This document shows, one piece after another, positions 54,905 to 62,753 of a DNA stretch of 64,000 nt. The notes under the pieces were generated by a model. The model did not search any database. It was not told the DNA's origin and saw nothing but the letters and a program-made list of their open reading frames with translations. The position numbers were made by a program, and so were the translations under genes. Numbering within the stretch: the stretch's first letter is position 1; every line of letters begins with the position of its first letter. The DNA comes from Candidatus Fimimonas sp. (GTDB taxonomy: Bacteria; Bacillota; Clostridia; Christensenellales; CAG-314), in contig JAZRHU010000042.1 of NCBI GenBank assembly GCA_045644945.1, forward strand, positions 44,314-108,313, read 5' to 3'.

Positions 54905-56389
54905 TTAGTTAATTTTTTCCAATTTGTCACCACAAATGTATGCATCAACTTTGCGACTTTCGTCCACGAGATAAACTTGTGCATTGTACTTTTTGAGTAC
55001 TGGCAAAATACCGCGGAAGCGATCCAACGCCTTGTTTTTGTTAGGCAAAAGCAGGTCGTAGATAACACCACCATCACCGCACACACCTTGGCCGACAAGC
55101 AACGTCAAGTTACTTTTATCCTGTTGAACAAATGTATTATTTCTGTAGTCAAGATGCCAGAACAAATCATTTTGGATTGTTTCAATATCATCAACTTTGG
55201 GAATGTAGATGTAACCCAATGTGTAGTGAGTAAGCCACAACGCTGGAGGCCCATCCTTTTTGAGGTCTTCTTGAGTCATTGTTGCAAGGTTTGGCGCCAT
55301 CGATGCCAAATGGGCAATCTTTTCGCGCCCCAAAAGAGGAGTTCCTGTCATATTTTTGCCATCAGTCAGGTCAATTTGGAACATTTCGGGGAATGGAACT
55401 GGTGGTAACTTTTGATAGTAGTTGGAAATGGCCTCCACAACATCGCCAAGAGTTGCAAGTGCAATGTCGCTATCGATATATCTAATTGTAAACCACGCAT
55501 GATACATTTCTTCACCAAGCGCACAAGTAAGGTAGTTTTCGATATCTTGCACATAACTAAAAGTTTTGCGCTCACTAGAACGAAGTTTTTCCGGAATAAA
55601 CACGCGAAGTTCACTTTGACCATTTTCGCCACACTCGGTAAAGTAGGCAACCTTACTACTTTCGTTAAGCTTTGTCTTACCTTTATACTTGACTACACCG
55701 CCCTTAAGGCAAGGAATCATCTTCCAACCATTTTTCACAAAGACACTTGGCATATCGTTGAACACTTGTGCCAAAAATTGCAAGTCAAGGGCAAATTCCG
55801 GAGCGCTCGCGCATGCGCGCGCGTACAATACATAATTACCATCCACAACACGACCAAAAAGTTCCACTGGGAACATTATGCGAGAGAGTTCCTTGTTGAA
55901 AATTTTTGATAACTTTTTGTCATTACCCTTGTCGATACACTTTTTGATTTTGTCGTATTGCTTTTCCAAAAATGCACCAATTATGTAGTACAGAATGTCG
56001 TAGTAGATAACCCTGTCTCCTGGTTGACGGCGCAAACAGCACATGCCATCTAAATCCATTTCGACATAGTGGCCAGACAAATCAGCCGAGTCCCCACCAA
56101 AAGAGGAGCAACCTTTGCACTTTGCATCAACAAGTTTGCGAAGTTTTTCGTCATACTCGTCCTTTGTGAGCACAAACACATCGCAAGGCACAATGTGGTT
56201 TGGAGCATCGATATCCAAAGTTACAGCTTCCACCAAACTATCGATAAAATATGGTGGAATACTACCCAAGTTTTCGTCGCCAATGCCAAGTTTTTGTAAG
56301 GTTACTTGACCATTGAGTTGCTCAATGGTCTTGTCTTCCGGCAAAATATAGTAGTTAAAATGATAGAAAATACCTTTTAGTTGTTGCAT
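54905..56389 (-). CDS. Hypothetical protein (494 aa), no recognisable domain. It is the last gene of the TIR / RyR-domain cluster.
   Basis: Start at ATG 56389 (MQQLKGIFYHF) with an AAAGGA SD 6 nt upstream; the track uses TTG 56407. It lies 61 nt after the stop of the 835-aa gene. It contains a Cys cluster (KCKGCSSFGGD...GMCCLRR) and has no TM helix or signal peptide. Confidence 0.7.
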   Translation of the reverse strand: MQQLKGIFYHFNYYILPEDKTIEQLNGQVTLQKLGIGDENLGSIPPYFIDSLVEAVTLDIDAPNHIVPCDVFVLTKDEYDEKLRKLVDAKCKGCSSFGGDSADLSGHYVEMDLDGMCCLRRQPGDRVIYYDILYYIIGAFLEKQYDKIKKCIDKGNDKKLSKIFNKELSRIMFPVELFGRVVDGNYVLYARACASAPEFALDLQFLAQVFNDMPSVFVKNGWKMIPCLKGGVVKYKGKTKLNESSKVAYFTECGENGQSELRVFIPEKLRSSERKTFSYVQDIENYLTCALGEEMYHAWFTIRYIDSDIALATLGDVVEAISNYYQKLPPVPFPEMFQIDLTDGKNMTGTPLLGREKIAHLASMAPNLATMTQEDLKKDGPPALWLTHYTLGYIYIPKVDDIETIQNDLFWHLDYRNNTFVQQDKSNLTLLVGQGVCGDGGVIYDLLLPNKNKALDRFRGILPVLKKYNAQVYLVDESRKVDAYICGDKLEKIN

Positions 56390-56450
56390 AGATGTCCTTT
56401 TGTGCAATCAATTTATACATATTATCTGACCGAGATTTGTAAATTGGTGC

Positions 56451-62100: not shown

Positions 62101-62753
62101 TTGTTCAAGGCATCACCAATAGCATTGTTAAAATCCTCGCCGGGCACAAGGTACTCATCATACCAAATGGCAACATCTTGGCAAAATTCGCACTTGTGGA
62201 TTAGTCGCATCAAGCGTTGCGCGTGAACGCGGTCTTTTTTGCGATAGCTAAGGAAAATGTAGGAACGAAATGCGCCACGAATTTTACTTGCAGTTTCGTC
62301 CCCAACCAACACGCCATCGAGAAAGTTTTTGAGCTTTTCTTGGTAGGAAATGGCAGTTTCGTCCTTTTGATGTTTGTTAAGATACTGCAAATTGCCACAA
62401 ACACTATTAAACAGTTGATCAAGGCCATCCTCTTGCATAAGTGGCAAAACTGGAATATGGTTTTTGATAGCGATTTGGTAATCATCCAAACCTTTGTTAC
62501 TGCCAGAAAGCAATCTGCTTGTTACGGGCATAACAAAAAGTTGCATATCCGAAAGACGACTTTGCCACTCGGCCATGTCCCCAATGCCATTTGGTTGCTC
62601 GTCGTAGAAAATGGCGCAATTTTCCAAATTTAATATTTCTTGCGAAACACTTTCAAAATGGATAGCAAAGTCATCTGGATGACAGCAAAAATATACTCTT
62701 GGCTTGCCTTGAGGGGAAATATCCTTACCGCGAGTTCTAAAATTGAGTTGCAT
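59124..62753 (-). CDS. Tandem TIR-like domain protein with Sel1-like repeats and a ~850-aa TPR-like repeat region; no NTPase domain.
   Basis: 1209 aa with an AAAGGAG SD. TIR-like module 1 is residues ~17-106 (PRVYFCCHPDDFAIHF...AIFYDE...MQLFVMPVTSRLL...IPVLPL). TIR module 2 is residues ~164-257 (YIFLSYRKKDRVHAQ...AIWYDEYLVPGEDFNNAIGDALNKSQLFLLSVTPNLVCEPNYVQAVEYPMAL). Sel1-like repeats are LALAYLDGIDVEVDHARALEMLKYCA and MYKYGKGVERDITEAIKWQERY. After that come continuous TPR-like repeats (GxYxxAxxYYxxAL-type periodicity) running to the C-terminus. No GxxxxGK[ST] motif occurs anywhere. Confidence 0.8.
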   Translation of the reverse strand: MQLNFRTRGKDISPQGKPRVYFCCHPDDFAIHFESVSQEILNLENCAIFYDEQPNGIGDMAEWQSRLSDMQLFVMPVTSRLLSGSNKGLDDYQIAIKNHIPVLPLMQEDGLDQLFNSVCGNLQYLNKHQKDETAISYQEKLKNFLDGVLVGDETASKIRGAFRSYIFLSYRKKDRVHAQRLMRLIHKCEFCQDVAIWYDEYLVPGEDFNNAIGDALNKSQLFLLSVTPNLVCEPNYVQAVEYPMALESGKAVMPVEMCPTDKSMLKNQYANLPTVISESDEQVLMQELAKFFPRDVDPKDDVPRYHLLALAYLDGIDVEVDHARALEMLKYCAGRGYFSSFETIVDMYKYGKGVERDITEAIKWQERYVYVIKQILPQGLRDTKIDYYSQLINLGDMYKSLLDYDKSIQVYNTLKGFCEWWLGCAEQRDFAFVKSMLSYACNFLGEVHSSKYEFDKAQEYYLLALKYSEELAEIDPSIDTCYNLSTCYRNLGRCYESQGKYEQSLAYHNDRLRVLNMIAELDPDNRAYCDDSLLCCYTDLYDIYERMCDIPNAREVILQALALAERLDQEQNTDYTKDSLHVVYARMASLANFEEDLLEERNWYLKALDIAIQLADKQADVADRQRLARTLFNLSANARALGDYDEAEDYILKALYLREELVKFAPIPETQHTLASTYISVAKLYDNLSDQEKAVEMLHNAEKLLLGLIENNPTTQFYELLSDCYYNLARMMLGLKDLEKSEELYGKGLDVLLKLHEDIPNDNYLRDMAPFYYGLSSLLVEKDPDQSLEYALKAFELDLNYAKAHESAENWRQCIVDLSYLGNFYHLIEENDELAIECYENALTISKDLVSRVNSPYIFDVHISLLEDLSDLYVDMQEYDKAIFYCQSRLEAIKQVMQISKSPTHARSIYSTNYQLCQIYTKIEQVDKAKQCMLDGIGVLEENLTELRKLKLYPDEVLSSSYLTVADICHFADDDNLALQYYNKALACAKSAVEQDDAEQEVLTDVWRRFAIFHKDNQEYSKQLDYLLMVVADTLAMAQKDDNCANLVACGSDCKDVADCYDHLYDYENAVDYYNIAKGLLTQGREFCLQIQDDDQMEDHAQLYATSTRLLAEVEHSLGAYYYQIGDVESAVEHLAPAIEIALDFATITNEWDDWLSLAKYCLTLGQFAGIEPLEKAEEVLQTLLNDNPMDKSCMQILGEVRQAMKKYQ

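Follow-up and report, generated by a model that had tools for sequence, protein, structure and literature searches.

Thoeris systems (types I–XI) are the closest described counterparts of the locus analyzed here. In these systems a TIR gene adjoins a gene whose product combines a domain for small-molecule binding with a membrane or toxic module, and a TIR-made messenger derived from ADP-ribose (ADPR) activates the neighboring protein; several Thoeris effectors act on the membrane. The survey of Yirmiya et al. listed 29 putative types, among them type X, which combines a TIR protein with an ion channel and whose messenger is unknown (bioRxiv 10.64898/2025.12.03.692087); the accessible portions of its text and supplementary tables mention neither RyR nor PF02026. 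Here we describe three genes, A, B and C, in a 64,000-nt stretch of DNA from Candidatus Fimimonas sp. (GCA_045644945.1, contig JAZRHU010000042.1, positions 44,314–108,313, forward strand), hereafter called the window. The genes lie at 54905–62753 on the minus strand, all in the same direction, between the tRNA-Cys/Leu pair and infC. We propose, at a probability of about 0.45 and hence tentatively, that A and B form a Thoeris-like signaling pair with a new kind of receiver.

Like a Thoeris locus, this one sets a TIR gene beside a gene that joins a putative small-molecule-binding domain to a membrane module, and the logic that we propose for it would be shared. It differs in its TIR component, a 1209-aa tandem-TIR/Sel1/TPR protein instead of a short ThsB, in its proposed receiver, an RyR repeat behind two RCK-like modules that is used by none of the validated types, and in its setting, which is core genome and not a defense island. 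None of the catalogues searched (Pfam, NCBIfam, PADLOC 2023 and PHROGs) calls this system, and PADLOC gave no match for B or C. The statement of an earlier note on this DNA that the combination is unlike known TIR systems was borne out by this result and by the lack of relationship to the type X channel (see below).

The proposed receiver also has described relatives outside Thoeris. In a May 2026 preprint, Lopez Rivera et al. reported that phage RyDEP proteins (PF02026) bind the Thoeris messengers 2'cADPR and 3'cADPR, isomers of cyclic ADPR (cADPR), and that one of them hydrolyzes its ligand; the contacts are H75, W78, H100 and D117, which are conserved across the family up to the R12 repeat of animal RyR, and most homologues that carry these residues are binders of the signal and do not cleave it (PMC13232231). 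B shares with RyDEP and R12 the domain family, the four pocket residues and the H-x2-W and H-x16-D spacings. RyDEP are small soluble counter-defense glycosidases or sponges of phages, whereas B is encoded by the host, has 835 aa and a membrane region, and carries its RyR repeat as the C-terminal module of a channel-like architecture. With the RCK-gated K+ channels MthK, Slo1/BK and Slo2.2, B has in common an order of membrane helices followed by two Rossmann-type, RCK-like modules, and relatives of B, although not B itself, carry the canonical TVGYGD pore. B lacks the K+ signature and matches to Ion_trans_2 or TrkA_N, but adds an RyR repeat, which to our knowledge none of these three channels carries. 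Animal ryanodine receptors, giant Ca2+ release channels with six transmembrane (TM) helices, resemble the B family in bearing an R12-type repeat on a cation channel and in that an ADPR-derived messenger has been implicated; they have no homology to B outside the repeat. We know of no proof that cADPR binds R12 directly.

The RyR repeat and channel-like fold of protein B

Database searches returned 52 homologues of B, none of them named, from Clostridia-type metagenome genomes, and 42 homologous sequences were used for conservation, profile searches and the AlphaFold2 (AF2) alignment. As a single sequence, B scored 17.5 bits against the Pfam RyR model (PF02026), under the cut-off of 27.4, and five B homologues in our own Pfam scans reached 20.9–25.8 bits, also under the cut-off; PF02026 is entered for four B homologues in the precomputed Pfam column. 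The 42-sequence profile of B matched solved RyR repeats, namely 6uhi (E = 1.6e-11) and the Bacteroides protein 3nrt (E = 2.6e-5). H748, W751, H779 and D796 of B align with RyDEP H75, W78, H100 and D117, and each is invariant or at least 90% conserved among the 42 homologues. The spacings within the two halves of the pocket are identical to those of RyDEP, with a six-residue insertion between the halves. That the RyR domain could be a nucleotide receiver had been a guess; since the RyDEP residues are all conserved in B, it is now biochemically plausible, as judged from the alignment.

The AF2 model of B (pLDDT 85, pTM 0.83) placed helices at residues 2–36, 41–70, 78–96 and 113–138, followed by two alpha/beta modules and a helical C-terminus. 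Its top Foldseek matches in the PDB were Slo2.2 (E = 6.5e-4), Slo1 and MthK, all RCK-gated channels. The only GxGxxG motif in B is GFGKTG in the second alpha/beta module, of which G418 and G420 are invariant and G423, together with D452 and D455, is conserved in at least 90% of the sequences; such a motif with acidic residues is typical of a nucleotide-binding Rossmann fold, and it is placed after the membrane helices as in RCK channels. In the membrane region, IGGLTFEG (residues 93–100) lies between helix 78–96 and helix 113–138, and Y90, G94, G95, F98, E99 and G100 are conserved. From the charge distribution, with basic loops at 31–41 and 152–155 and an acidic loop at 97–112, we infer a possible pore-loop topology of outer helix, re-entrant helix, loop and inner helix. 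At the sequence level a K+ pore was rejected for this region, as hhalign against the pore of the TVGYGD family gave a probability of 0.2–0.3%. Neither PADLOC nor NCBIfam matched B.

Profile hidden Markov model (HMM) searches together with structure prediction found the domain calls of the earlier note essentially right. For B, the TM helices, two Rossmann-like modules, the GFGKTG loop and, by family profile, the RyR domain were all recovered, but there was no TrkA_N match and the single-sequence RyR score stayed below threshold. Structure prediction, which the note had asked for, gave the channel-like fold matches of B but no fold match for C.

The type X channel was considered as a relative of B and rejected. 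A type X locus was recovered from a Vibrio scaffold (L061) with the published TIR sequence; its effector ThsK, a membrane protein of 208 aa, lacks both RCK and RyR domains. BLASTP (E = 4.1) and hhalign (probability 0.2%) detected no significant similarity of ThsK to B or to the K+-channel-RyR family described in the next section.

TIR genes beside RyR genes

The neighborhood survey covered 60 loci with B or B-like genes (1.03 Mb), 37 of which have full-length B homologues. In the flanks of L001–L039, TIR proteins were detected with family HMMs and jackhmmer and not with Pfam, by which weak TIRs could be missed.

Distant relatives of B (L041–L060, from Lachnospiraceae, Oscillospiraceae and Butyrivibrio) mostly occur as gene pairs. 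One member (505–553 aa) has an Ion_trans_2 domain (49.7 and 58.6 bits), the filter sequence TLTTVGYGD, a Rossmann-like part and an RyR repeat; the other (605–655 aa) has TM helices without a filter, plus an RyR repeat. The C-terminal third of the B family (240 columns) aligned with this K+-channel-RyR family at an hhalign probability of 99.3% (E = 6e-21). Among the 78 neighbors in the distant group, TIR_2 was the commonest Pfam family, and TIR genes stood directly beside RyR genes, in the same direction, in L046, L051, L052 and L060. The TIR proteins differ in architecture: that of L046 is partial, that of L051 carries RHS repeats, and that of L052 carries a PQQ-type beta-propeller, its gene overlapping the channel gene by 4 nt. 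L060 (8780–14817; NZ_ATVS01000019), from the cultured isolate Butyrivibrio sp. AE3009, comprises three adjacent genes, in which an 805-aa TIR_2 protein with weak beta-propeller matches is encoded between two RyR genes, one for a 553-aa K+ channel with TLTTVGYGD, a Rossmann-like part and an RyR repeat, the other for a 610-aa TM-Rossmann-RyR protein. This cluster is a tractable relative of the A–B pair of the window.

All seven TIR genes found in the 1.03 Mb (806 non-RyR genes) lie at position ±1 of an RyR gene, while such slots make up 12.9%; the probability of this by chance is about 3e-4 if the seven are taken as four independent events. Pairing of a TIR gene with an RyR membrane or channel gene recurs across unrelated genomes at the superfamily level (the clade of the window, L046, L051/L052 and L060), whereas pairing of A and B orthologues is found in only one clade. 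The co-occurrence that the earlier note asked about was thus found for TIR and RyR genes (7/7 at ±1), but it did not extend to C, which is absent from the B and RyR loci outside the clade, or to the three A homologues examined elsewhere, which stand alone.

Other partners were recorded in the same survey. Ten loci adjoin a gene family that, where precomputed Pfam calls exist, is found beside a TraG-type coupling protein. DUF4062 has been described as a TIR-like NADase (bioRxiv 10.64898/2026.05.01.722283), and the DUF4062 and NACHT-like protein near the B homologue of L004 may for this reason be a second type of NAD-cleaving partner; single-sequence hhalign found no similarity of the AAA+ and DUF4062 partners to TIR. 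The ClpP-like paralogues directly upstream of B (for example L019:~3900–5080) are about 180 aa each and have serine-protease motifs, and RuvC and RuvA are encoded downstream of such loci in L019, L022 and L034.

Genes for RyR-bearing membrane proteins usually stand next to a paralogue, in many cases with an overlap or a gap of a few bases (L041–L055, L005, L007, L015 and L039), and these pairs take two forms: a K+-filter protein with a filter-less protein, or B with a B paralogue of about 720 aa. This pairing of genes suggests hetero-oligomers in which two RyR repeats would be paired, by analogy with the dimer of RyDEP or the tandem R12 of animals. This bacterial group offers a further combination of TIR and membrane proteins at L070, where the gene for a tandem-TIR/TPR homologue of A is immediately preceded by that for a 361-aa protein with TIR_2 and TM2 domains (6320–7405).

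The tandem-TIR protein A

Residues 166–258 of A matched Pfam TIR_2 at 34 bits (cut-off 28). The profile of this second module matched solved TIR structures, including TIR NADases, at E-values down to 6.5e-8, and PADLOC reported a generic ThsB-like TIR match (7e-7). Module 1 (residues 1–158) had no Pfam match; hhalign aligned it with module 2 at a probability of 97.5% (E = 7e-12), and both modules were present in 121/121 A-family sequences examined. Because of this conservation and the hhalign result, tandem TIR is a fair label for A. E241 of module 2 is invariant in all 121 sequences, and it aligns with D92 of module 1, a position at which the hhalign output gives E as the family consensus.

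Downstream of the TIR modules, the Sel1 assignment fell short in Pfam (21.9 bits, cut-off 30.7), but residues 299–367 matched the Sel1 repeat protein 6ok3 in phmmer (E = 7.5e-9). TPR_12, TPR_2, TPR_8 and related models matched stretches within residues 461–1141 at up to E = 8e-23, and the array also matched bacterial kinesin-light-chain-like TPR structures. The architecture given in the earlier note therefore stood for the tandem TIR, the TPR array and the lack of a Walker A motif, and in part for Sel1. An Avs-type STAND sensor was rejected as an identity for A, in which neither a Walker A motif nor a match to a nucleoside triphosphatase (NTPase) family in Pfam was found. The A family is large, with >3000 homologues, mostly in Clostridia, Oscillospiraceae and Ruminococcaceae.

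Conservation of the locus

The exact L20 protein of the window occurs on many contigs, and in 8/8 distinct contexts returned A, B and C were in the same place. The strain contexts differed only by a DegV gene between C and infC, which is missing in the window and in L072. This presence/absence polymorphism adjoins the trio (window 54585–54904 versus L071 8073–8945), and most strains of the species carry DegV. Compared with six strains, the ratio of nonsynonymous to synonymous substitutions (dN/dS) was 0.07–0.08 for A, 0.06 for B and 0.06–0.07 for C, and the synonymous divergence (dS) of the three genes was 0.9–1.1, like that of the flanking DHH, RelA and radical-SAM genes. Owing to the low dN/dS, the flank-like dS and the presence in all contexts, we conclude that A, B and C are functional, vertically inherited and fixed in the strains seen. 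The three co-directional genes between the tRNAs and infC, as first noted from the open reading frames (ORFs), are hence real genes.

Defense islands are usually patchy and fast-evolving. The earlier note had raised a defense-island setting for the trio; the core-genome site, the 8/8 contexts and the flank-like dS and dN/dS speak otherwise. A mobile island was rejected as well, as there is no GC anomaly (0.40–0.44 across the trio, equal to the flanks), the genes are present in all contexts and their dS equals that of the flanks.

A proposed signaling mechanism

The conserved RyR ligand residues, the channel-like fold of B, its homology to the K+-channel-RyR proteins and the repeated TIR–RyR adjacency are the grounds on which we read A and B as a pair. 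The earlier suggestion that a TIR-made nucleotide acts on the RyR/RCK membrane protein has gained from the RyDEP residues, the K+-channel-RyR relatives and the recurrent TIR adjacency; its extension to a three-gene unit acting as one system was not supported, as the trio is confined to one clade. We infer, for this pair, the TIR activity and its product, the ligand, gating, output, co-transcription and purpose.

In the scheme that we propose, the TPR/Sel1 array of A would bind a trigger, which could be a foreign protein, for instance from a phage, or a cue from within the cell, and this binding would bring the tandem TIR modules together. The TIR_2 module would then turn NAD+ into an ADPR-derived messenger, most plausibly a cADPR isomer. 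B would be membrane-embedded, its pair of RCK-like modules and the C-terminal RyR repeat facing the cytoplasm, probably as a dimer or tetramer because RyR repeats pair into a two-fold pocket. Messenger bound in the pocket of H748, W751, H779 and D796 would act on the RCK-like ring, which would relay the change to the membrane part and so alter ion flux or membrane integrity. The output might be growth arrest or changed physiology, in phage defense or in ordinary signaling. A broader and more tentative idea, against which we would lean, is that bacterial channels use the RyR (R12) repeat to receive a cADPR-type messenger made by TIR proteins and thereby open a cation pore coupled to RCK.

Alternative explanations

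The chief alternative, which we consider rather unlikely but still the strongest competitor, is that A and B are unrelated neighbors whose adjacency is inherited synteny without functional coupling: A would be a stand-alone NADase sensor-effector or scaffold, and B an autonomous nucleotide-regulated cation channel or transport regulator reading ATP, ADP, NAD(H) or ADPR for ion homeostasis. A number of observations weigh on its side, against a signaling pair, or both. The A–B–C adjacency was found only in one clade and at one syntenic site by infC (the window, L001, L009–L011 and L071–L078), which shared descent can explain; this site is core genome and not a defense island, and the dS and dN/dS of the trio match those of flanking housekeeping genes, so that the purifying selection is housekeeping-like. 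The three A homologues examined outside the clade of the window are monocistronic, without RyR or a conserved partner, and C is absent from every B or RyR locus surveyed outside this clade. B homologues have many different neighbors or none, with about 30 of the 37 full-length B loci lacking a TIR neighbor and P0014 standing alone. Because the 165-nt gap between A and B carries a promoter-like site, co-transcription of the two genes is unproven. RCK domains bind common adenine nucleotides. RyR pockets, including that of animal R12, also bind plain adenine nucleotides (PMC13232231), and the ligand of B need not for that reason be TIR-made. With respect to the proteins themselves, the Foldseek TM-scores of the B model are low (~0.25), with support at the fold level only; Pfam TrkA_N does not match B even at E = 1; and B has no K+ signature sequence, no Pfam Ion_trans_2 match and no recognizable pore sequence. 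In A, the catalytic residue is probably E241, but three alignment routes, which disagree by 1–4 residues, assign the canonical catalytic Glu to V237, A239 or V240, all of them 1–4 residues before this invariant position. What the chief alternative leaves unexplained is that other TIR architectures independently adjoin RyR relatives (L046, L051/L052 and L060), with all TIR genes in about 1 Mb at ±1, and that B has kept the full RyDEP-type set of ligand and catalytic residues.

The same residue set can be read differently. Since H748 and D796 correspond to the catalytic dyad of the RyDEP glycosidase, the RyR repeat of B might act at the membrane by hydrolyzing or sequestering cADPR isomers made by TIR proteins, setting a threshold or serving as an off-switch or self-protection. 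The retention of the dyad and of all binding residues fits such a role, as do a stand-alone 96-aa RyR-domain protein directly adjoining the B homologue in L003 (9697–9987) and the match of B residues 662–809, which include the RyR repeat, to the phage protein family PHROG 5154, whose function is unknown. We nonetheless consider it improbable: about 700 conserved residues of membrane and tandem RCK-like architecture, with K+ pores in paralogues, would be superfluous for a sponge or hydrolase, binding without cleavage prevails among RyDEP homologues with the same residues (PMC13232231), and a pattern scan of IMG/VR found no B relatives in viral contigs. More improbable still is that B belongs, as one subunit, to a membrane stress system linked to proteolysis or an ATPase that uses no nucleotide messenger, its RyR and Rossmann parts regulating ClpP-like proteases, AAA+ ATPases or YbjN-like chaperones and TIR being one of many interchangeable partners. 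The ClpP-like pair upstream of B homologues in seven loci, the YbjN-like proteins in three and the AAA+ proteins beside RyR gene pairs in L003, L042, L044 and L045 would be accommodated by this explanation. These partners, however, are as lineage-restricted as TIR, and several of the loci may be one syntenic block; none of the ClpP-like, AAA+ or YbjN-like partners explains the conserved nucleotide pocket, and the AAA partner has no similarity to TIR, which leaves no unifying logic.

Gene layout, protein C and flanking features

The coordinates of the genes, of their domains and of the partner genes found in the survey are collected in Table 1. For gene C, the mechanical ORF (54905..56407) has 500 aa and starts from a TTG six codons before the ATG at 56389. 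The latter was taken as the start because homologues are of about 494 aa (493–495 aa) and an AAAGGA ribosome-binding site (RBS) precedes it. The gap between the stop of B and this ATG is 61 nt. Gene B has the RBS AAAGGAG, and no terminator-like site was found in the A–B gap.

Table 1. Positions of genes, domains and neighboring features. Coordinates refer to the window, or to surveyed loci where a locus is named.
Feature	Position	Strand	Description	Basis
Gene A	59124..62753	-	1209 aa; TIR-like module, TIR_2, Sel1-like repeats, TPR array; no NTPase domain	ORF
A module 1, residues 1-158	62280..62753	-	divergent TIR-like module	hhalign against module 2
A module 2, residues 159-300	61854..62279	-	TIR_2; invariant E241 at 62031-62033	Pfam
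A residues 299-367	61653..61859	-	Sel1-like repeats	phmmer against 6ok3
A residues ~440-1209	59127..61436	-	TPR array, presumed sensor or scaffold	Pfam TPR models
A-B intergenic region	58959..59123	-	165 nt; promoter-like site TTTAAA-17-TATAAT, TG-extended, at 59119..59091	
Gene B	56451..58958	-	835 aa; TM region, two RCK-like Rossmann modules, C-terminal RyR repeat	ORF
B residues 1-152	58503..58958	-	membrane region; most conserved motif IGGLTFEG	AF2 helices, conservation
B residues 157-405	57744..58490	-	first alpha/beta (RCK-like) module, without GxGxxG	secondary structure, fold matches
B residues 411-650	57009..57728	-	second Rossmann/RCK-like module, GFGKTG at 418-423, D452/D455	motif, conservation
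B residues ~715-810	56529..56816	-	RyR (R12-type) repeat with H748, W751, H779, D796	family profile against solved repeats
Gene C	54905..56389	-	494-aa orphan with conserved C91, C94, C117	ORF, homologue lengths
tRNA-Cys	63077-63150	+	upstream of trio	
tRNA-Leu	63199-63285	+	upstream of trio	
TIR-TPR protein upstream of B	L001, L009, L010		upstream side missing in L011	
C downstream of B	L001, L009, L010, L011			
B paralogue adjoining B	10 loci		upstream in nine, downstream in L032	
ClpP-like paralogue pair upstream of B	L014, L019, L022, L028, L030, L034, L035		7 loci	
YbjN-like protein upstream of B	L002:7724-8179, L003:9184-9654, L008:7993-8481		one or two genes away	
DUF4062 + NACHT-like protein	L004:5915-9448		1177 aa, two genes upstream of B homologue	
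B without same-strand neighbor	P0014			

Protein C was described in the earlier note as not assignable, and it had no match in Pfam, NCBIfam, PADLOC or PHROGs. A word-indexed search returned 14 close homologues, and an exhaustive profile search extended the relatives to 180 representative clusters, of which some 30 are full-length. Its N-terminal module of about 125 aa occurs in relatives alone or fused to DMP19-like or DUF2695 domains, and C91, C94 and C117 are invariant. The AF2 model of C was confident (pLDDT 90.8), and Foldseek found no significant match to its fold, the best E-values being 0.03 in the PDB and 0.013 in BFVD, with TM-scores of 0.1–0.2. No relatives of C were found in viral contigs in the IMG/VR pattern scan. 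Our guess is that C is a clade-specific accessory, perhaps a zinc-binding regulator or an immunity-like partner; the immunity-like idea has as its sole basis the fusions of the N-terminal module to DMP19/DUF2695 in distant relatives.

Beyond the trio the gene order is infC, rpmI, rplT, a SpoU-type methylase, YebC, a DHH protein and RelA. At 54720–54876 (minus strand), a strong promoter-like site (TTGACT-17-TATAAT, 11/12 matches) stands just past the stop of C, and two hairpins that resemble terminators lie between it and infC. In sequence this looks like the leader or attenuator of the infC-rpmI-rplT operon; an Rfam search at the gathering threshold found no L20-leader RNA upstream of infC, the only hits being the two tRNAs. 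After RelA, a gene at 45598–46206 (minus strand) encodes a 202-aa metallo-beta-lactamase-fold protein. The precomputed Pfam matches of its sister-strain equivalents include Anti-Pycsar_Apyc1, and its dN/dS was the highest among the flanking genes tested except for an unnamed 417-aa gene (0.10–0.11); it is probably a housekeeping nuclease or hydrolase. Elsewhere in the window, eight tRNA genes are clustered at 38877–39587 (plus strand), namely those for Gly, Arg, His, Gln, Lys, Lys, Leu and Gly.

Implications

If the coupling of A and B is real, the RyR/R12 repeat would be a new receiver domain, and an RCK-type channel-like membrane protein a new output, in bacterial TIR signaling, and Thoeris-like systems would extend into gut Clostridia, an under-sampled group. 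Pipelines that start from defense islands would miss the A–B pair because it sits in the core genome. The direct action of cADPR on the ryanodine receptor, and its site, have been disputed for decades; a small bacterial protein with the same repeat on a channel beside a TIR enzyme would offer a simple model for this question, and the cultured Butyrivibrio sp. AE3009 carries a version with a canonical K+ pore. Should the broader idea of an RyR repeat that opens a cation pore also be true, it would amount to a prokaryotic form of "cADPR opens ryanodine receptor" and to the first effector class with the RyR fold as a receiver instead of a viral sponge or hydrolase, and its first examples would be the A–B pair of the window and the K+-channel-RyR/TIR clusters of Butyrivibrio and Oscillospiraceae. 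By analogy with what is thought of cADPR and the animal ryanodine receptor, these loci suggest that bacteria may couple a TIR-made ADPR signal to a membrane channel.

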